A stretch of 57,715 nucleotides of DNA from a virus (Duplodnaviria; Caudoviricetes): IMG/VR virus record IMGVR_UViG_3300030376_003804, positions 1 through 57,715 of that record; one strand, 5' to 3'. Each line of letters begins with the position of its first letter. Position 1 is the first letter of the stretch. The translations under genes and the position numbers were made by a program. Positions 11,293-32,751 of the stretch are shown in pieces. Under the pieces are notes generated by a model. It ran no database searches and was not told where the DNA came from. It was given only the letters and a program-made list of their open reading frames with translations.

Positions 11293-11490
11293 GTAAAAAA
11301 CCATTTAACTGATAGCGAGTTAATCCAAATTGGATTTGAAGAATCAAGCTTAAATCTTGATAAACTGCAAGAGTGCGAAGGGGCACCGTATTGTGAAGAA
11401 TGTGCCGAGAATCACATTATAGAACAAGCCACTAATATGTTATACGGTAGTCCATTATGTTATGATTGTTTTGGAGAGTTTCACGGATGA
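11290..11490 (+). CDS. Small CxxC...CxxC zinc-finger protein
   Basis: CEEC and CYDC motifs; leaderless start. Confidence 0.7.
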   Translation: MVKNHLTDSELIQIGFEESSLNLDKLQECEGAPYCEECAENHIIEQATNMLYGSPLCYDCFGEFHG

Positions 11491-11828
11491 ACTCAGATAA
11501 CAATAAATATTTTGTGTATCGATTAGCCCAACAAAAAGAAAAAACTTCTTATCATTTTGTAGATATCGATATGGATTCTGACGTGACTAAAAATTCTGTA
11601 TACTACGGCATAACTCAGGACCCACAAATGCGCTTATCTAAGCATCGACCCCGTAAGGGTCAAGATATCAGCCTTATTGTTATGGCTGAATTTGATAATG
11701 TATTTGAGGGATTAGCTCATGAAGCTAATTTAGTTTGGCAACACGTTCAACAGTTCGGCAGTGCACCAAAATTTCAAGGTATGGCCGGAGTAGGTAACGC
11801 TGGTTACAAATACGGAGGCAACAAATAA
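11487..11828 (+). CDS. GIY-YIG-like nuclease-domain protein
   Basis: YFVY...YYGITQDPQMRLSKH...E pattern; ATGA overlap sets the start at 11487. Confidence 0.6.
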   Translation: MNSDNNKYFVYRLAQQKEKTSYHFVDIDMDSDVTKNSVYYGITQDPQMRLSKHRPRKGQDISLIVMAEFDNVFEGLAHEANLVWQHVQQFGSAPKFQGMAGVGNAGYKYGGNK

Positions 11829-12327: not shown

Positions 12328-12444
12328 ATGGATTTAAAAACCAAAATCGCAGTAGTTAGAGCCCTCAGGTATAAATTACTAAATCAAGATACCTGCAAAG
12401 TAAATCTACCTACACACATATACGCAGAAGCACTTAAGCTGTAA
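12328..12444 (+). CDS. 38-aa hypothetical protein
   Basis: GGAGGT SD; MDLKTKIAVVRALRYKLL... Confidence 0.55.
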   Translation: MDLKTKIAVVRALRYKLLNQDTCKVNLPTHIYAEALKL

Positions 12445-12473
12445 CGGCTTCCCAAAACATGGGATTTACCTGC

Positions 12474-12517
12474 GCGGGGTGAGAAACCCGCGTGGGTGAG
12501 AAAGTGAGAAACTGAGA
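12474..12517 (+). repeat. GTGAGAAA repeat cluster flanking the left side of the module array
   Basis: GTGAGAAA x3 plus CTGAGA within 44 nt. Confidence 0.65.
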
Positions 12518-12569
12518 TTTTCCACTCGCGTGAAAAAACCTTTATATAGAGGTTCTCAGTTGGTATAAT

Positions 12570-12680
12570 ATGACAGAGCAACGCTGTGAAGACTGTGGCA
12601 TTGAGGACATCGAATTATTCGGTGGATTATGTGAAGACTGCGATACACAAATGTTTATGACCTTTTGGTCAGAGGACTGA
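12570..12680 (+). CDS. 36-aa zinc-finger microprotein
   Basis: MTEQRCEDCGIEDIELFGGLCEDCDTQMFMTFWSED; ATG 29 nt from the TATA start. Confidence 0.7.
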   Translation: MTEQRCEDCGIEDIELFGGLCEDCDTQMFMTFWSED

Positions 12681-12716
12681 GAGAAACCCTTATATAGGGA
12701 CACTCAATAGGTAACC

Positions 12717-12800
12717 ATGAGAAAACTAACATTACGTGAGATTAAATTGCAGACCATCGCCCTGAGAAGAATAAGAAAGGAGATGGAACAGAATCTTTAG
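12717..12800 (+). CDS. 27-aa basic helical microprotein
   Basis: MRKLTLREIKLQTIALRRIRKEMEQNL; own promoter, ATG 28 nt from the TATA start. Confidence 0.6.
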   Translation: MRKLTLREIKLQTIALRRIRKEMEQNL

Positions 12801-12809
12801 ATTCCATGA

Positions 12810-13031
12810 GCCCCCAGCACTGTAAGATGTGGCCCAAGGAGTAGGTACACCTTTTGGAAGAGGCAAGTGTATGAGTTAGTCAATAAACTATCCAGCATGG
12901 GGGCAAGAGAGGTTGCCTGACAAGTGAAGGCGAAGGGCCAGCGACATAAGCCCGCCCGAACGTTAAACGTAGCGACGTGACCTCAGTCCGGTGAGTCAGC
13001 CACCCCTAGGTGGTGGGGCAGCCGGGCGCCC
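12810..13031 (+). ncRNA. Structured ncRNA candidate 1
   Basis: GC-rich with no ORF; GCCCCCAGC/GCATGGGGGC closing stem, TACAC/GTGTA, GGGC/GCCC, GCCCG/CGGGC and CCACC/GGTGG helices; ends at a T-run. Confidence 0.55.
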
Positions 13032-13082
13032 TTTTCCACTCATGTGAAAAAACCTTTATATAGCCCTACTCATTGGTAATGT

Positions 13083-13241
13083 ATGACTAGAAAACACTTT
13101 ATAGCCATAGCTAGAATACTAGCAAAGCATGACGCAGACCTGAGAATGGTCCGAGACTTCGCTGGGATGTGCGCCGAGCATAACCCACGCTTCAACAGAG
13201 AAACCTTTATAAAGGCCTCCTCAATGGTAAAGTATGAGTAA
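13083..13241 (+). CDS. 52-aa conserved phage early protein (MTRKHF...NPRF family)
   Basis: MTRKHFIAIARIL...NPRFNRETFIKA pattern common in phage early regions; leaderless promoter. Confidence 0.75.
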   Translation: MTRKHFIAIARILAKHDADLRMVRDFAGMCAEHNPRFNRETFIKASSMVKYE

Positions 13242-13443
13242 AATCCAAGACATGAGAAACGAGTTTCGTTTCCGAAGAGTAGCACGCAGAACCATGACCA
13301 AAAACCTAGTCGACTTAGGAATCCATGAGCAACTCATGGCTATCCGCATGGGCCTAACAGATGACCCACGCAACCCTTTGAAAATTGAGGGTGAGGACGA
13401 GGAGCAAATGTTCCTACACAATAATGTGAGTGTGTGGGAATGA
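13234..13443 (+). CDS. Hypothetical early protein
   Basis: Own promoter embedded in the upstream CDS; ATG 28 nt from the TATA start. Confidence 0.7.
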   Translation: MSKIQDMRNEFRFRRVARRTMTKNLVDLGIHEQLMAIRMGLTDDPRNPLKIEGEDEEQMFLHNNVSVWE

Positions 13444-13556
13444 AGAGCATCTTAGATATACTAGACGACATGGTTATATCTGGCATCGAAGAGGCAGGGG
13501 ACTATATAGTTCTCTGTGGGTGTGAAGATGCACCTTGCTGTGGTTGTAACTTATGA
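13440..13556 (+). CDS. 38-aa CEDAPCCGC-motif microprotein
   Basis: ATGA overlap; C-terminal CGCEDAPCCGC motif recurrent in phage small proteins. Confidence 0.7.
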   Translation: MKSILDILDDMVISGIEEAGDYIVLCGCEDAPCCGCNL

Positions 13557-13630
13557 GTTACGAAACGCCACTAAAACGCAGTTGGAAAAAAGAAACAAAT
13601 AAGATTATTAAAAAGGCCAGCACCAAATAG
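13553..13630 (+). CDS. 25-aa basic peptide
   Basis: ATGA overlap; MSYETPLKRSWKKETNKIIKKASTK. Confidence 0.45.
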   Translation: MSYETPLKRSWKKETNKIIKKASTK

Positions 13631-13650
13631 CTCGTTTGTTTTCAACCTCC

Positions 13651-13677
13651 GGGGGGTAGGGCCTCCCCCCACCTTTT
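13651..13677 (+). terminator. Hairpin plus T-run ending module 2
   Basis: GGGGGG-N8-CCCCCC followed by ACCTTTT. Confidence 0.55.
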
Positions 13678-13725
13678 CCACAAGAGTGAAAAAAGTCTTA
13701 TATAGGGTGGTGTTCTTGGTAATGT

Positions 13726-13968
13726 ATGAGCAAAGCAAATCCGTGTGGTAAGACCACATCAGTAGAAAAGCCTTATGAAGTATGGACAATGGACCATATG
13801 AACTTTGAATGGAGAGTATTAAAAAAATACCAAACTCCTGAGAATGAAGCAAAGAACCCATACGCCAGATGGTATTGTGCGGTGAAAAGTGACATGACCT
13901 ATGACATGTGGGAATACGGAGATGTTTATGTCTCTGAGATAAAACAAAACGGGGTAAAGCTTATATAG
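13726..13968 (+). CDS. Conserved phage early protein
   Basis: WRVLKKYQTPENEAKNPYARWYCAVKS...WEYGDVY; leaderless promoter. Confidence 0.78.
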   Translation: MSKANPCGKTTSVEKPYEVWTMDHMNFEWRVLKKYQTPENEAKNPYARWYCAVKSDMTYDMWEYGDVYVSEIKQNGVKLI

Positions 13969-13988
13969 GGTATCCCTAATGGTAATAC

Positions 13989-14325
13989 AGAGCGGGGAGC
14001 CCAAATTACCCCCGCTCACTTACAGTTACTGGCCGTAACATCGTATACGATTAGTGACCTGTGTATTAAGACAAGAATAGACCATACGCCAACAGACGAC
14101 AAGCAATAACAAACTCAAGCTGAACAAGTGCTGACCATTCCCTTTCCGGATGACGGCCGTTATAAACCATAACACATCGCGTAGCTAACAATTTGTATCA
14201 CCTTTTGCCTCACTGATTCCCTGTTATAAACTTAAGCGTCTACAGCTATGAAGTAATTCTCTTCATCTTTTTACTCCGCCTCTCGTGACGGATATCCGTT
14301 TGATTGGCGGCAGGTCACACCCCGT
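13989..14325 (+). ncRNA. Structured ncRNA candidate 2, with its own promoter
   Basis: Promoter at 13960 has GGTAATAC-AGA where its siblings have GGTAAT..-ATG; 5' hairpin GAGCGGGG/CCCCGCTC; long-range GTGACCTG(14054)/CAGGTCAC(14311); no ATG ORF over 12 codons. Confidence 0.68.
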
Positions 14326-14377
14326 TTTTCCACTTGTGTGAAAAAAGCTTTATATAGGGTCCCTCTCTTGGTAATAC

Positions 14378-14614
14378 ATGAGCCAAGCAACTCAGACTAA
14401 GACCAATCTTCCTTGGAAGAATGGAAGCAAGGAGGTCGACTACTTTGTAGAAATCGGCACGACTCCGTACGGTAAGTATGGATTATACAAAGAAATGATT
14501 CCTGTAGGCACAGGGTCCAGAGGGAGACATATGGAACTCGCTCGTGAGATTCGTCTGTCCAATCCGGAAATATTTGCGGAGTTAGAACTAAGACAAGTTG
14601 TCAGCAGGGGATAA
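14378..14614 (+). CDS. Hypothetical early protein
   Basis: Leaderless promoter; ATG 29 nt from the TATA start. Confidence 0.72.
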   Translation: MSQATQTKTNLPWKNGSKEVDYFVEIGTTPYGKYGLYKEMIPVGTGSRGRHMELAREIRLSNPEIFAELELRQVVSRG

Positions 14615-14644
14615 GTATAAATAGCTTGTCCTGTATGGAGTAGT

Positions 14645-14971
14645 ATGACTAAAGCAAAAATGGATTACCTTTGGGCACCAAAGTCTGAAGGTATTGTTAG
14701 CGACATACTTAACCAAATTGGTATCGAGAGGGTGGGTTCATCCGCTCGGTATCCAACCGGTGTAAAGTATGATACTCTGATTGCGATATCAGATGTGCTG
14801 CACAACAATGAAAAGTTTGCTAGTATGGTTGCATCAGCAACTCATGCTTACCAAAGCAAACGCAAAGTAGAAGGTCGAGCTCCCTCTGTTGATTCACTCG
14901 TCTCACAGATGGGTCGAATGACAGAAGCTGACCTGAAGAAGGCGATGAAAAAAGCTGGACTCATCAAGTAA
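14645..14971 (+). CDS. Hypothetical early protein
   Basis: TATAAATA at 14616; ATG 29 nt later. Confidence 0.72.
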   Translation: MTKAKMDYLWAPKSEGIVSDILNQIGIERVGSSARYPTGVKYDTLIAISDVLHNNEKFASMVASATHAYQSKRKVEGRAPSVDSLVSQMGRMTEADLKKAMKKAGLIK

Positions 14972-14979
14972 GACAAATG

Positions 14980-15268
14980 AAGCAGCTGGGCATCTCAGAA
15001 AACTGCCCACCTTATCTTTAACGGGGTAGCTCCCTGTTATCGGGTATGGCCGAATAAGTGTAGTCACGCACTAAGGCACACAAACGCACACCCAACGAGC
15101 AAGTGCTTGAGGGATGCGGGCGTGGTTGGACTGGATTACTACAAACTGTAGTGACATCTGGGCCTTGGGGGTAATACAGATATCCCCCTACCCACCTTAT
15201 AGTTATGTTCTAACAGGCAGCCACAGGCAAGCCAAACAGGAACTAACACGCCCCCTTCGAGGGGCACC
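14980..15268 (+). ncRNA. Structured ncRNA candidate 3
   Basis: Serial hairpins TGGGCA/TGCCCA, TAACGGGG/CCCTGTTA, TTACTACA/TGTAGTGA and GGGGG/CCCCC; long-range GGGCGTGGTTGG/CTAACACGCCC. Confidence 0.55.
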
Positions 15269-15278
15269 TTTTTTTTTT
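15250..15278 (+). terminator. Hairpin plus T10 terminator
   Basis: GCCCC-CTTCGA-GGGGC followed by ten T. Confidence 0.7.
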
Positions 15279-15309
15279 CCACTCAAGGGGAAATACTTTT
15301 CCACGCGTG

Positions 15310-15565
15310 TGGGCCTCAGCTCAACTAATCTTTTTTTCTCAGCTCGTTAGGGCTCAGTGAGAAACTTCTCAGCTTGCTCTATAAAACACTTACGGGAGCT
15401 CGGTAGGGCACGGTGAGAAAAAGCTCTCAGTTCGCCTAGTGGGCTCGATTGAGCACTTCGGTAGGCCAGAATGAGAAAATGCTTTGTGAAGCTCATCCCA
15501 AACCGGAACCAGTTCGGGTTCAGTAGAGCTTTGTTCGCAACGATATGTGTTCGTGAGAAAAAGGT
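15310..15565. repeat. TGAGAAA/CTCAG repeat cluster (iteron-like)
   Basis: GCTCGTTAGGGCTCAGTGAGAAA, GCTCGGTAGGGCACGGTGAGAAA and CTTCGGTAGGCCAGAATGAGAAA at about 57-nt spacing, plus inverted TCTCAG copies. Confidence 0.65.
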
Positions 15566-15569
15566 AGTA

Positions 15570-15770
15570 GTAATATGTTCTTAGCCTATATTAATAAGCT
15601 CTATTAAGAGCACTACTCAGCTCATAATATAGCTCTATAAGCTCTATATCGCAAAGCTCTACTGAGTAAATCTCTATTAATCTCTTTACTTACTGCTATA
15701 CTATACCATAATAGAGCAATACTTAATATAGTTAATATAGGGAGTACGAACTATATATAGTTTTGCATGA
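15570..15770. repeat. AT-rich tract with four AGCTCTA(T/C) repeats; candidate replication origin
   Basis: Copies at 15597, 15631, 15640 and 15655; palindrome AACTATATATAGTT at about 15749-15762; non-coding. Confidence 0.55.
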
Positions 15771-15867
15771 AAAAGCCCCCCGTTTTTTTACTCAGTACAT
15801 AATTTGAGCACGGTGTCTCAGCCCATAAGGGGTAACGCTTATATAGGGTTATATAGATGTAGATACG

Positions 15868-20255: not shown

Positions 20256-20696
20256 ATGCAAACATTTCTACCAACAAGAAACTTTAGAACATCAGCCAAA
20301 CTACTAGACTATCGTCGTCTAGGTAAGCAGAGAGTAGAGGGGCTTCAGCTCATTAACTCACTCAGTCCAGACTATGATAAGAAAGGTTGGCTTAACCATC
20401 CTGCACGTTTAATGTGGGTTGGTTACGAGAACGCACTGAAACATTATACTAACATAATGATAGAAGAATGGGTTGCACGTGGATACAACAACACGATGCA
20501 GCTATACGACATACAAGGGCCAATAGTATATCCTCAATGGCTAGGCTATCCCGAATTGCACAAGTCGCACCGAATGAACCTTTTACGTAAGGACTACAAA
20601 TTTTATGCAGAACATTTCGGGCCAGATGCACAGACGGACCTCACAGTCATAAACGAGTATCCCTACTATTGGCCAACGGAGAACAATAATGATTAG
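20256..20696 (+). CDS. Pyrimidine-dimer DNA glycosylase family protein (MSMEG_6728-like)
   Basis: MQTFLP...LDYRRLGKQRVE..Q...GW.NHPA..MW.GYE.AL...SHR.NLLRKD...Y.WP. Confidence 0.88.
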   Translation: MQTFLPTRNFRTSAKLLDYRRLGKQRVEGLQLINSLSPDYDKKGWLNHPARLMWVGYENALKHYTNIMIEEWVARGYNNTMQLYDIQGPIVYPQWLGYPELHKSHRMNLLRKDYKFYAEHFGPDAQTDLTVINEYPYYWPTENNND

Positions 20697-21607: not shown

Positions 21608-22111
21608 ATGGGAAGAAAAGATACAGGAAAGAACTTTGAAAGTGAAATCAGAAGAAGTTTAAAATCAAGCCGTCACATTTGGTGGTTCAGGATTCAAGAT
21701 ACAAATGACATCAACAGATTCGTTAAAATTGCAGTCGCTGAAAAGCAACCCGCCGATTTCTTTACAGTCTACAGAAGTCGACCAATTATGCTTGAGGCTA
21801 AAACTTCTAGGAATCTTACTTCTTTTCCTTTATATTATGGTAATACCCCTGCTATTGCTAAGCACCAAATAAGAGAAGGTGCAAAGTTAGAGAGAGCTGG
21901 TGGACTGAGCTTTATATTGATACGAAGAGAGGAATACAGAAATAAGAAAACTTATGCAATTACACCTAGTCAAGCGAAATATTTATATAGTAAGGCATAT
22001 GATAAGAAATCAGTTAAGTGGAAGTGGTTCGAAGAACACGCTTACATTGTTGAGCGATTGAAGGCACCACTACGATGGAACTTACAAAAACTATACGAAG
22101 AAGCATTATGA
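21608..22111 (+). CDS. Holliday junction resolvase (Hjc/RecU-like PD-(D/E)xK)
   Basis: GKNFESEI, PADF, LEAKT, HQI...GG.SFIL. Confidence 0.82.
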   Translation: MGRKDTGKNFESEIRRSLKSSRHIWWFRIQDTNDINRFVKIAVAEKQPADFFTVYRSRPIMLEAKTSRNLTSFPLYYGNTPAIAKHQIREGAKLERAGGLSFILIRREEYRNKKTYAITPSQAKYLYSKAYDKKSVKWKWFEEHAYIVERLKAPLRWNLQKLYEEAL

Positions 22112-22242
22112 AAAAGAGAGCAACTAAAGTACCATACGAAGGATATACTCTACCTCCCTCATCTGAGAGGGGTGGTAAGTTTGTAGACTTCAATAAAGTA
22201 ATGAATAGAAAACCAATAAAGAAAGTAAGGATAAAGAAATGA
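22108..22242 (+). CDS. 44-aa basic hypothetical protein
   Basis: ATGA overlaps at both ends. Confidence 0.5.
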   Translation: MKKRATKVPYEGYTLPPSSERGGKFVDFNKVMNRKPIKKVRIKK

Positions 22243-22844
22243 AAGAGATAATGGAAGAATACAGCACCACGTTCTTTGAATGTATGAGTGCATGGCCTAA
22301 TGATATCAAAGAAGATATATACAAATTGTACGCATACCTCAGAGTATGTGATGAGATGGTTGAAGGCGAGAAGGAAATACATGACTTCAAACAATGGAGG
22401 GAAGTTATAGAACAGTTCTACGAAGTGAGCGATAAGTATCAGTTCGAAGGTGAATGGCTCTCAGACTTTCACGTTAGTATGTATCAGGACATGGTGAAGA
22501 AAGAACACACTATAGTATCTATGTTAGAATATTGTAAGGGTTCAGCTGAGTCAGTTGGTATGATGATGTCAAAGATACTAGGCTGCCACCCACGATGTGA
22601 ACAACACGCCAGAGCTTTAGGTAGAGCATTCCAAATAATTAACTTTATAAGAGATTATGATGAGGATGTTTCAAAGGGTTACCATTACATCACAGATAAC
22701 TTTAGTGCATACTTAGAAATATTCTATCAAGATTTAGATAACGGTATGGATGGTATAGATTTTATACCAAAAGAATTACAACCACCTATCCTTATGGCTG
22801 TAGAAAAATATATGGCTGTAGCCAAGAAGGTGGATGAAGCCTAA
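22239..22844 (+). CDS. Compact phytoene/squalene synthase family protein
   Basis: YSTTF, LYAYLRVCDEMVE, EYCKGSAESVG, ARALGRAFQIINFIRDYDED..KG..Y. Confidence 0.85.
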   Translation: MKEIMEEYSTTFFECMSAWPNDIKEDIYKLYAYLRVCDEMVEGEKEIHDFKQWREVIEQFYEVSDKYQFEGEWLSDFHVSMYQDMVKKEHTIVSMLEYCKGSAESVGMMMSKILGCHPRCEQHARALGRAFQIINFIRDYDEDVSKGYHYITDNFSAYLEIFYQDLDNGMDGIDFIPKELQPPILMAVEKYMAVAKKVDEA

Positions 22845-25069: not shown

Positions 25070-25441
25070 ATGTATGGAAGAGACGCAGATAGAATGTTAG
25101 ATATGTGGATGGACTTACTACATCAGATAGAACAAGTCCCGTCAGGCAGACACGCTATATCTACATTAGGTCGTAAAGATGTCTCAGTTAATGAAGAGAA
25201 TGGAACTATCACAATCACAGCAGAACTAGCTGGTTTGGATAAAGAACAAGTCGATGTAGAGGTAAGTAGTAGAACTGTAAGTATTGCAGCTAACTCAGAT
25301 AGAAAGAACTTTAGATGGGAAGAAACATTTAAGTTCGAACTAGACCCAGAGTCAACCAAAGCTACTATGGTAAACGGTATACTCGATTTAGTTATTGAAA
25401 AGAAAGAGAAGACCTCAGCAAAGAAAATAGAGATAGAATGA
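25070..25441 (+). CDS. Small heat-shock protein (Hsp20/alpha-crystallin)
   Basis: AELAGLDKEQVDVEV...ATMVNGILDLVI.K...KKIEIE. Confidence 0.88.
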   Translation: MYGRDADRMLDMWMDLLHQIEQVPSGRHAISTLGRKDVSVNEENGTITITAELAGLDKEQVDVEVSSRTVSIAANSDRKNFRWEETFKFELDPESTKATMVNGILDLVIEKKEKTSAKKIEIE

Positions 25442-31260: not shown

Positions 31261-32751
31261 ATGAAGCAGTTTAGTCGCAACAGTGAGGAGACAGTAGGTC
31301 GAAACTCCGATAGTTTAGAGTTTGACAGACCTAAAAAAGGCAAGTTAAGAATAATGCCAGTATCAGATAGCCCATGGGCACCAACTGGTTTTGGCACGAA
31401 CACTAAAAATATTAGTGCTATACTACATAATGAAGGACACCATATAGGTTATGGTGGATGTCAAAATGCAAAACACAGTAAATGGTATACACCTTGGCCG
31501 CTAGGTCAAACTGAGACGGAAGTGTATTTTGAAAACCTTCCTTTAATGTTTCCGGGCCAAGAAAGATTTGGTGAAAAGTCTTTTCCACAATGGATAGAAA
31601 AATTTAAACCAGACTTAGTCTTAGCACATTTAGATTTTCAGATGTTTAAACACATGACTGATATGAAAAAACCCGGAGCTTTACAGCTACCTTTATATAA
31701 TAATGAAGGAAAACTTTTGAATAAAAAAGAAAGAATGGCCATAATGAATCAAGCTTTCAAAGAAGTACAAAAAGGTACATTATGGAAGTTAGGTGTAATT
31801 ATACCATATGATGGAGAACCATCCATAGCTGAGTGGCAATTACAATTAGATAATATAGATTATGGCGTAGCTATGTCAAAATATGGTCAACAGGGATTGA
31901 AAAAGGATTTTGGTATCGATACTACCTATATACCACACGGGGTTGATACAAACCTTTTTAAACCAATTATAAAACCTATGTATGGTAGTCTACAAAAACC
32001 AGATTGTTTTATAGTAGGTTGTGTAGCTCGAAACCAACATAGAAAAAATATACCAAGACTCATCAAAGGATTTGCTCAATTTGTAAAGAAAAATAAACTA
32101 ACACCAAAAGAAGCAAAACTTATATTACATATGGATTGGGTAGATGCTATGGGTTGGAAGTTCCCTGAGTTTGCTGACCAGTATGGAGTTGGAGATTATT
32201 TAATGCCACCTCTTATGGGAGTTCTAGACCATGGGGAAGCAGCCACGGAAAAAGAAATGGCTCAAATGTATAACTGTATGGATGTCTTTGTTTTACCTAC
32301 AGCTGGTGAAGGGTTTGGTATACCTACTTTAGAAGCTATGTCTTGTGGTGTCCCTATATGTGCAACTAATTACACAACTAGTTATGAATTAATAGCGTGT
32401 AATGATGCTGAGAACGAGGAAGTACCAATGTTCCCACTAGGTGGACACTTTAATGACCCAAGTCCTAATGGTAGAGACCACTTAGAAGAATCAGATATTT
32501 GTGAAAGAGGTATACTATTACCATACAAAGATATGTGGTGGGACACACCTAATAGGGCAGCACCTCAGAGAGCCATATGTAGTGAGAACGCCATATCTGA
32601 AGCTCTAGAATATTATTACAATAATCCTGACAAGAGAATTGCAGCAGGTAAGGCGGCTCGTAAGCATGCTGTAGAAAAATATAGTTGGGATGTAATAGGA
32701 AAGAAATGGATTGATTGGTCTGAAAAGATTAATAAGGAGATAAATAAATGA
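31261..32751 (+). CDS. GT-B glycosyltransferase (GT4-like)
   Basis: SDSP..PTGFG, IPHGVD...F.P, VARNQ.RKN, EGFGIP.LEAMSCG.P, YSWD. Confidence 0.9.
   Translation: MKQFSRNSEETVGRNSDSLEFDRPKKGKLRIMPVSDSPWAPTGFGTNTKNISAILHNEGHHIGYGGCQNAKHSKWYTPWPLGQTETEVYFENLPLMFPGQERFGEKSFPQWIEKFKPDLVLAHLDFQMFKHMTDMKKPGALQLPLYNNEGKLLNKKERMAIMNQAFKEVQKGTLWKLGVIIPYDGEPSIAEWQLQLDNIDYGVAMSKYGQQGLKKDFGIDTTYIPHGVDTNLFKPIIKPMYGSLQKPDCFIVGCVARNQHRKNIPRLIKGFAQFVKKNKLTPKEAKLILHMDWVDAMGWKFPEFADQYGVGDYLMPPLMGVLDHGEAATEKEMAQMYNCMDVFVLPTAGEGFGIPTLEAMSCGVPICATNYTTSYELIACNDAENEEVPMFPLGGHFNDPSPNGRDHLEESDICERGILLPYKDMWWDTPNRAAPQRAICSENAISEALEYYYNNPDKRIAAGKAARKHAVEKYSWDVIGKKWIDWSEKINKEINK

Follow-up and report, generated by a model that had tools for sequence, protein, structure and literature searches.

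An array of alternating dyad-linked and dyad-less promoters with microprotein and structured-RNA cargo in a marine tailed virus with archaeal-type transcription signals

Layout of the array and its promoters

The IMG/VR entry IMGVR_UViG_3300030376_003804 is a linear record of an uncultivated marine tailed virus, 57,715 nucleotides (nt) long and with an estimated completeness of 82% (hereafter, the window). Between the structural and the replication modules of this genome lies an array of promoters and small genes in which every second promoter is fused to an imperfect palindrome, or dyad. A preliminary description, made from the sequence alone, had proposed four such modules closed by two degenerate copies of the repeat, and both the reading of the sequence and a motif search bear this out: exact copies of TTTTCCAC-N4-GTGAAAAAA start at 12518, 13032, 13674, and 14326 on the plus strand, and degenerate copies lie at 15275 (three mismatches) and at 15297 (read by eye as TTTTCCAC GCGT GTGGG). 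When up to three mismatches are allowed, the motif has 11 matches against 0.37 expected, five of which are minus-strand readings of the same palindromes, and none of 100 shuffles reaches 11. The only other match in the 57.7 kb, at 31581, is unrelated, with three mismatches and no promoter context.

The dyad spans 21 bp (TTTTCCAC-N4-GTG(A/G)AAAAA) and occupies positions −52 to −32 of every second promoter, where its right arm runs into, and forms, the transcription factor B recognition element (BRE), so that the inverted repeat overlaps the BRE; in the full copies, the TATA box follows two bases further on. A second TATA box, without dyad, is found 148–266 nt beyond each dyad-linked one, which gives eight TATA boxes at 12541, 12689, 13055, 13206, 13697, 13960, 14349, and 14615. 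The two promoters per module had been proposed before with seven of these positions exact and the last one off by a single base (14616), along with an ATG 28–29 nt from the TATA start; the distance is in fact 28–30 nt and applies to seven of the eight promoters, that at 13960 having no ATG and entering non-coding sequence. All eight array promoters, for most of which the preliminary description had noted a proximal TGGTAA-type element, carry GGTA 20–21 nt from the TATA start. In their common build, a BRE rich in purines is combined with a TTTATATA box and, some 10 nt ahead of the start, with a TTGGTA element. Several genes of this virus share a conserved sequence around a BRE/TATA core. By eye, the other 11 promoters of the genome that match RAAANNYTTAWAWA have no GGTA at the array position, and the GGTA/TTGGTA element would mark a special promoter class.

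All features of the array are on the plus strand. Module 1 opens with the dyad of promoter P1 (12518–12538) and its BRE/TATA (12541–12548; 12518–12548 together) and reads into gene A (12570–12680), which encodes 36 amino acids (aa) with a zinc-ribbon-like CxxC...CxxC pattern and has a leaderless start at the predicted transcription start. Promoter t1 (TATA at 12689) and gene B (12717–12800, 27 aa) form the second unit (12689–12800), followed by nc1 (12801–13031), a structured RNA of about 230 nt extending from the stop codon of the preceding open reading frame (ORF) to the T-run of P2. Module 2 begins with the dyad and BRE/TATA of P2 (13032–13062) and gene C (13083–13241, 52 aa), within whose end lies promoter t2 (TATA at 13206) of gene D (13234–13443, 69 aa, with an arginine-rich N-terminal part; unit 13206–13443). 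Two micro-ORFs linked to their neighbours by ATGA overlaps come next (13440–13556, 38 aa, Cys-rich; 13553–13630, 25 aa, Lys-rich), and a terminator-like GC hairpin of the form G6...C6 (13651–13670, within 13651–13673) abuts the T-run of P3. In module 3, the dyad and BRE/TATA of P3 (13674–13705) precede gene E (13726–13968, 80 aa), and promoter t3 (TATA at 13960, no ATG) leads into the non-coding nc2 (approximately 13989–14325; unit 13960–14325), with a hairpin at its predicted start. Module 4 comprises the dyad and BRE/TATA of P4 (14326–14357), gene F (14378–14614, 78 aa), promoter t4 (GTATAAATA at 14615) with gene G (14645–14971, 108 aa; unit 14615–14971), a full-length manA RNA (Rfam RF01745, 15019–15198), and a terminator-like GC hairpin (15250–15265) with a run of nine T (15250–15278). 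The two adjacent degenerate dyads, which have no TATA box, form the closing end of the array (15275–15313).

The modules thus end, in order, in a structured RNA (nc1), a GC hairpin, a structured RNA (nc2), and manA with hairpin and T9, as had been claimed. With spacings of 514, 642, 652, and 949 nt, however, the array is only loosely periodic, and module 2 contains four ORFs (C, D, and the two micro-ORFs) instead of two.

The flanks of the array carry repeats of their own. Three copies of GTGAGAAA, which resemble the BRE or the right half-site, lie just upstream of the first dyad (12479–12511, plus strand), and three more at 15357–15560, so that all six copies in the window are on the plus strand and flank the array. 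Downstream, a repeat-rich non-coding stretch (15314–15837, plus strand), 80% identical over its full length in the relative L021, includes three 24-nt repeats (AGCTCGKTAGGGC..GTGAGAAA; 15341–15560, spacing 56–58 nt) and an AT-rich part with many short inverted repeats (15580–15770). This stretch is possibly an origin or a regulatory region, and the flanking GTGAGAAA and 24-nt repeats could be part of a replication origin or half-sites for the same factor as the dyad.

At about 11 kb, the leftward structural genes stop and the rightward genes begin, which places the array at the head of the rightward block. The window encodes TerL, a portal, an HK97-type capsid protein, a tape-measure-like protein, PolB, and a class II ribonucleotide reductase, next to CobS- and CobT-like proteins, a PD-(D/E)XK nuclease, denV, a RecU-like resolvase, a phytoene/squalene-synthase-like protein, and Hsp20. 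The auxiliary genes lie on the plus strand (denV-type pyrimidine-dimer glycosylase, 20256–20696; RecU-like resolvase, 21608–22111; squalene/phytoene-synthase-like gene, 22239–22844; Hsp20, 25070–25441). The promoters of leftward structural genes read TTTATATAC or TTTAAATAC (e.g., 5182, 7687, 9600, 11077, and 51899, minus strand) and those of rightward genes mostly TTTATATAG, a difference that may reflect temporal classes.

Cargo, conservation, and exchange among relatives

An exact-motif scan of IMG/VR returned 32 loci, of which 23, on 20 contigs, have the array in the corresponding position of the genome; the remaining nine are single dyad matches without a TATA box. Across these relatives, the module order A-B-nc1, C-D, E-nc2, F-G-manA is largely conserved. 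The canonical succession runs from dyad-A, t-B, and nc1 through dyad-C, t-D with the two micro-ORFs, and the hairpin, then dyad-E and t-nc2, to dyad-F, t-G, and manA, followed by the terminal TATA-less dyad or dyads, the repeat-rich spacer, a gene H, and, further on, the CobS-like gene.

The window and the 23 loci hold 78 dyad instances, 65 of them unique. Among the unique ones, 47 are fused to a TATA box at a fixed distance, 17 are real dyads with no TATA box directly adjacent, and one is the unrelated match at 31581. The information content of the dyad is near 2 bits at all 17 specified positions in surrounding DNA that is 70–85% identical. Of the 47 TATA-fused copies, 46 have the same left arm; for the right arm, 39 read GTGAAAAAA, seven read GTGGAAAAA, which makes a perfect palindrome, and one reads GTGTAAAAA. 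The TATA-less copies occur at the terminal site, where a dyad of the GTGAAAYTT type is conserved in seven relatives, and at the first site of one clade (clade 2). There, as in L025 (7532–7700, oriented), the first dyad comes with a third half-site (GTGAAAAAAATTTTCAC), a 35-nt insert, and two successive TATA boxes, and the A-like gene has a 15-nt leader with GAGGA, that is, it is not leaderless. A reverse-strand TATA box before this clade-2 dyad was considered and rejected, the sequence being the loop of a GC hairpin. That the dyad is kept in two contexts without an adjoining TATA box suggests that it is a DNA site in its own right.

The cargo consists of microproteins and structured RNAs, as had been surmised. 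Alignments of the relatives show families A–H to be coding, with conserved residues and synonymous nucleotide changes from codon 2 on, and the 13440–13630 micro-ORF region is 73–95% identical in the 16 relatives that match there. Families from different modules do not cluster together, in agreement with the earlier claim that the cargo is unrelated between modules. Searches of the array proteins A–H found no Pfam or PHROG family, only gene A having weak zinc-ribbon matches below the cut-off, and when D, G, F, and E were compared with PDB sequences by profile search, the result was noise; a single PDB match of low E-value was discarded, as it was to a designed repeat protein and had no aligned stretch. 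A low-confidence AlphaFold2 model of D (predicted local distance difference test [pLDDT] 61.1) shows one long helix over residues 3–38.

The structured RNAs nc1, nc2, and manA are genuine. The manA match scores 56.6 bits against a gathering score of 55.2 (E 8e-12) and covers model positions 1–192 of 192, and of 14 related loci that were scanned, six have manA in the corresponding position (62.6–69.2 bits). It lies 47 nt past the stop of gene G and is followed by the hairpin and T9, and about 670 nt separate it from the next ORF (15868), which is preceded by a TATA box of its own (15838); in the array, manA is not located in the 5′ untranslated region (UTR) of a regulated gene. In nc1, a structure of 52 pairs has 99.0% of its cells paired and 21 pairs changed on both sides, versus 9.9 ± 2.1 in shuffled alignments (0 of 500 reaching the observed count) and 1–8 in slid controls; in nc2, with a length of 340–430 nt, the corresponding figures are 58 pairs, 96.3%, and 26, versus 11.1 ± 1.8 (0 of 500) and 2–7. 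These shuffle counts are not probabilities, since the alignments (13 related sequences) are those from which both structures had been predicted. Single-sequence folding is not clearly better than shuffles (z −0.89 for nc1, −1.80 for nc2), and the case for structure therefore rests on covariation. With no Rfam match at E-values up to 10, and with conserved blocks found within IMG/VR only in this virus family (nc1 in 16 loci, nc2 in 13), nc1 and nc2 are two new RNA families, supported by covariation.

Hairpin modules with invariant loops (26 nt; 22 nt) and covarying stems recur at differing places among relatives (L025:8304 and 9504; L002:3768 and 3808; L023:2558 and 2598; L015:1700 and 3036; L022, oriented, 10126 and 11559), at the 5′ end of nc2, before nc1, or in an extra module, and the 5′ end of nc2 in the window (13990–14018) is a third hairpin type. 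These recurrent modules look like interchangeable RNA plugs.

The array region is a mosaic, a syntenic block with occasional exchange and not a freely shuffling one, and the nearest relative differs segment by segment. Relative to the window, L005 is 95–99% identical in the upstream region, in A, after D, and in E, and only 80% in nc1, for which L025 is the best match (91%), as L012 is for F (93%). L005 lacks gene B, which is replaced by an unrelated ORF, and the window's nc2 5′ hairpin, and its alignment locates the junctions: identity is 100% across P1-A-t1 and ends eight codons into B, the body of B is exchanged for other sequence as far as the first nc1 base, promoter P3 has a replaced spacer ahead of a 96%-identical E, the replacement of the nc2 5′ hairpin begins inside promoter t3, and an 82-nt indel abuts P4. 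In L011, the layout is dyad-x, t-C, nc1, dyad-A, t1::D, with C in the place of B and the t1/D junction inside the promoter. A gene k belongs to module 1 in L002, L023, and L028 and stands between C and D, with two flanking promoters, in L022 and L029. An automated pairwise screen of 91 locus pairs returned 56 blocks of replacement or indel type, with many events counted more than once. Of the 112 block edges, which are not independent, 37 fall in promoter/dyad zones that make up 11–22% of the region, an enrichment to which the dyad-less promoters contribute no less than the dyad. Of the cassette swapping proposed in the preliminary description, and of the comparison of relatives by which it was to be checked, the exchange itself is thus recovered, with varying content and with breakpoints in some promoters or abutting the dyad, in an order that is mostly conserved and largely syntenic. 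Gene D (13234–13443) has three alternative C-terminal tails among relatives, one short and two longer ones ending in VWE, which explain a large share of the screen's breakpoints outside promoters.

Transcription signals, host, and the role of the dyad

The preliminary description had inferred an archaeal-virus system, and the BRE/TATA signals do look archaeal. The pattern RAAANNYTTAWAWA, expected 0.78 times, has 17 matches genome-wide, every one of them on the strand that carries the neighbouring genes. Genome-wide, first genes have their ATG 24–34 nt from the TATA start and no Shine-Dalgarno site, that is, they are leaderless, and genes internal to operons have AGGAGG-type Shine-Dalgarno sites (e.g., 12108 and 12313). 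RAAA-NN before the TATA box, and leaderless first genes combined with Shine-Dalgarno sites on internal genes, are archaeal hallmarks. In relatives that have a Shine-Dalgarno leader before the ATG, the distance from TTGGTA to TATA is kept and the leader begins right behind TTGGTA, and the covarying nc2 5′ hairpin starts 1–2 nt past the predicted transcription start. Sigma-70-like sites are not enriched (10 found, 12.2 expected), and only one of the eight array promoters, P1, passes the scan. Because of the RAAANNYTTAWAWA excess, the leaderless first genes, the internal Shine-Dalgarno sites, the position of the nc2 hairpin, and the lack of sigma-70 enrichment, we consider it clearly probable, from these sequence signals, that the array promoters are read by an archaeal-type transcription machinery. 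Promoters of the T4 late type were also considered and rejected, as they leave the conserved RAAA-NN element before each TATA box unexplained.

Four marine metatranscriptome runs, taken from three studies, contain small stretches of the region (shares of sampled words 0.05–0.08), and 19 RNA-library contigs of 85–99% likeness partly cover A/B, D, E, nc2, F, and G; positions 12400–12600, 12804–13207, and 15026–15400 have no cover, which is uninformative on expression. One 300-nt contig (depth 23.6) covers 14025–14322 and stops just before the T-run of P4, a weak hint of transcription.

Magroviruses, the viruses of Marine Group II archaea, are recognized by the grouping of their major capsid protein and PolB with reference magroviruses and by a near-complete archaeal-type replication apparatus; PolB was found here, and PCNA, RFC, and MCM were not found among the ORFs scanned with Pfam. 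The major capsid protein had no match in a phage collection, and a protein atlas search returned viral capsid clusters only, with no clue to the host. No TBP (TATA-binding protein) gene is present in the virus record, no transfer RNA was found in the window, and the dyad-plus-TATA pattern had no match in a collection of species genomes. Among the matches listed, TerL is at most 25% identical to any isolate, the majority of the matching records being cyanophages and the best-covered ones a Bacillus phage, Thermus and Meiothermus phages, and a haloarchaeal virus.

On this basis, our preferred reading, to which we give a probability of roughly 60%, is that the array is a conserved, probably early, co-regulated promoter region of a marine tailed virus with archaeal-type transcription, in which the dyad serves as an operator. 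Transcripts would start directly at the ATG of a microprotein or at the 5′ hairpin of a structured RNA. The dyad would bind a dimeric DNA-binding protein, viral or host, which could toggle the four or five units jointly by aiding or blocking the binding of transcription factor B (TFB), and such regulation would make these units one regulon. The hairpin or structured RNA and the T-run, with which the dyad begins on its left, would jointly terminate the upstream transcript and so insulate each unit. The 45 nt before the dyads fold with a mean of −12.7 kcal/mol versus −6.0 for random 45-mers, an excess that is partly due to higher G+C, and 31 of 63 lie below the random 5th percentile; this structure fits a terminator-promoter composite. 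Exchange may follow as a by-product, with no dedicated mechanism, because eight near-identical units of 30–50 nt lie within 2.8 kb: occasional recombination between them could swap, insert, or replace cargo.

Several observations weigh against this reading. By reading, t1, t2, and most other promoters of the genome have G at BRE position −6 and A at −3 (GAGAAAcc, GCGAAAgc), and the four dyad promoters, which also have A at −3, have A and not G at −6; this could mean that they need an activator, or it could be meaningless. The T-run counts only 4–5 T at four of five sites, which is short for archaeal termination. Among the array proteins, no dyad-binding protein was identified by Pfam, PHROG, and PDB-sequence searches, and the AlphaFold2 models of D (pLDDT 61.1) and G (52.7) are of low confidence, too poor for fold searching. 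The promoter/dyad zones leave most block edges of the pairwise screen (75 of the 112 non-independent ones) unaccounted for. The RNA-library data consist solely of assembled contigs, to which carried-over DNA may have contributed. Lastly, the gene content (cobS/cobT, hsp20, denV, the RecU-like resolvase, the class II ribonucleotide reductase) is marine-phage-like, TerL is 22–25% identical to bacterial-phage TerL in the rows listed, and its sole close relative in genome bins (71% identity) is the 2.7-kb contig L033, binned with a metagenome-assembled genome of an uncultured gammaproteobacterium (Ca. Ruthturnera); this is the only host hint coming from bins, it is weak host evidence, and the assignment is probably a mis-binning. 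Finally, manA is otherwise known from cyanophages and gamma-proteobacteria (PMC2864571).

The last of these points, gene content and the binned contig included, point weakly to a bacterial host, and they are part of what speaks for a bacterial phage with cassettes of the promoter-stem-loop (PeSL) type, a reading that we regard as unlikely. TTTATA would then be a −35-like box, TGGTAnnnT an extended −10, and the dyad a lambdoid-type repressor operator, with the hairpin and T-run as an ordinary intrinsic terminator and the promoters read by a sigma-70 holoenzyme. Indeed, P1 fits TTTATA-N17-TATAAT with an upstream TG at 10 of 12 positions, and the GC hairpins with their T-runs resemble bacterial intrinsic terminators. 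P1 is, however, the only array promoter to pass the sigma-70 scan, and a −10 that ends at the ATG would put the starts inside the ORFs, yet coding conservation begins at codon 2; such a start would also cut the covarying nc2 5′ hairpin. The RAAA-NN before every TATA box and the contrast between leaderless first genes and internal Shine-Dalgarno sites are, as noted above, archaeal hallmarks.

Even with archaeal-type promoters, the dyad need not be an operator: it might be the mere joint between the T-run terminator of the upstream unit and a long A-rich BRE, its symmetry being a side effect or that of a bidirectional terminator or insulator. The left arm does begin with the T-run, the right arm is the BRE, the second promoters would seem to work without a dyad, and there is structure before nearly every dyad. 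However, neither a T-run nor a BRE needs the invariant CCAC and GTG(A/G) cores, the BRE of the genome's other promoters is GCGAAAnn and not GTGAAAAAA, and the dyad is retained without TATA box at the terminal site and, with its 35-nt insert, at the first site of clade 2, so that we hold a mere joint to be distinctly improbable. Taken together, the fixed fusion to BRE/TATA, the survival of TATA-less dyads, and the invariance of CCAC/GTG favour an operator overlapping the BRE. The constant spacing between dyad and TATA box, kept in 47 unique copies, speaks for a role in transcription and against a dedicated recombination site (integron- or attC-like) or nuclease target at which a viral recombinase or nuclease would shuffle cassettes, which is very unlikely. 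Some indels do abut the dyad (the 82–104-nt nc2 3′ domain at P4 and inserts of 46–49 nt at P2), the window encodes the PD-(D/E)XK nuclease and the RecU-like resolvase, and an ORF some 700 nt upstream has a weak GIY-YIG-like match (E 0.0011, below the cut-off). But scans of part of the ORFs revealed no integrase or recombinase family, the module order is largely conserved, and junctions occur in promoters, at start sites, and at the ends of ORFs, the clearest ones being in dyad-less second promoters or at start sites. The earlier proposal that the repeat acts as a recombination site is not sustained, since most edges lie elsewhere and dyad-less promoters are used equally, which does not single out the palindrome. 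The upstream ORF itself (11466–11828, plus strand) encodes 120 aa.

A bolder extension of our preferred reading, which we hold to be rather unlikely, is that the array is an immediate-early arsenal of RNAs and micropeptides of a marine archaeal virus, with nc1, nc2, and manA as trans-acting host-takeover or anti-defence RNAs and not cis regulators. The interchangeable 5′ hairpin modules with invariant loops would then be plugs for the docking of proteins or RNAs, and hairpin, T-run, dyad, and BRE/TATA would form a portable boundary for the expression and exchange of cargo. If so, manA would be a viral RNA common to both prokaryotic domains.

Relation to known systems

To our knowledge, little is known of the timing of expression in tailed viruses of marine archaea, and very few structured RNAs of archaeal viruses have been described; the locus offers a compact regulatory code, made of dyad, BRE, TATA box, and TTGGTA element, and a set of RNAs to compare with systems known from elsewhere.

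For the exchange of cargo, the comparison is with the PeSL cassettes of T4-like phages, which combine a strong sigma-70-like early promoter with a stem-loop terminator and give rise to mini-circles by exchange between motifs (PMC2839356, PMC4122927). The array shares with them a small repeated composite of a promoter and an at least predicted terminator, in a region rich in small ORFans, and indels or replacements between relatives whose ends lie, in the clear cases, in the motifs. It differs in that PeSLs are sigma-70 promoters of bacterial myoviruses and the promoters here are of the BRE/TATA type, so that on this feature the array falls outside the PeSL class; in addition, order is mostly conserved and most breakpoints lie outside the motifs here, and the dyad has no counterpart in those PeSL descriptions as available (PMC2839356, PMC4122927). 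What is found is a natural, promoter-mediated exchange of cargo that resembles that of T4 PeSLs on archaeal-type promoters.

In the original account, manA is described as a likely cis-regulatory 5′ UTR element and riboswitch candidate, with the ibpA chaperone and nucleotide-synthesis genes among its neighbours (Weinberg et al. 2010, PMC2864571). The copy in the array agrees with this RNA in its full-length match above the gathering score and in its marine viral setting, and differs from what is described there by its position after gene G and before a terminator-like hairpin, in a virus with archaeal-type promoters; this non-5′-UTR and possibly cross-domain context is relevant to the question whether this orphan motif is a riboswitch at all. 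Another small cluster of RNAs with manA as a member is known from the T4-like cyanophage S-CREM1, where wcaG, manA, and abiF RNAs lie within about 800 nt, with a bacterial host, other partner RNAs, and no repeated dyad-promoter array in the available description (PMC9964418).

The closest known match is the shared early-gene regulatory sequence of crenarchaeal viruses. In SIRV2, SMV2, and others, early and anti-defence genes share regulatory sequences around the BRE/TATA, and the SMV2 consensus contains inverted repeats that overlap the BRE and are read as a repressor site, a small helical protein being the proposed binder; the strong BRE of these viruses, counted from the start of the TATA box, has G at position −6 and A at position −3 (Nat Commun 2024, PMC11065993). 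The earlier statement that such a system had not been described in archaeal viruses must accordingly be withdrawn, as that paper reports early-gene regulatory sequences of this kind. The likeness comprises a shared sequence centred on the BRE/TATA, an inverted repeat over the BRE, and small ORFan genes. The crenarchaeal viruses, as described there, are rod- or spindle-shaped and live in hot springs, whereas the array belongs to a marine tailed virus; their early-gene motif differs in sequence from the dyad promoter; and early timing and anti-defence function have been shown for some of their genes, whereas for the array the former is probable and the latter conjectural. Relative to the same account, the array is one tandem block of alternating dyad-linked and dyad-less promoters, with TTGGTA near −10 and a predicted fused upstream terminator, and structured RNA makes up one third of its cargo. 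New here are the type of virus and its habitat, the alternation of promoters in a tandem layout to which a predicted terminator is fused, the TTGGTA element, and the exchanges at the level of promoters, as well as a structured-RNA cargo of two new families plus manA outside a 5′ UTR, probably in an archaeal-virus setting. If the logic of the crenarchaeal viruses holds, the shared promoter would be a handle for finding early, including anti-defence, genes in the viruses of marine archaea.

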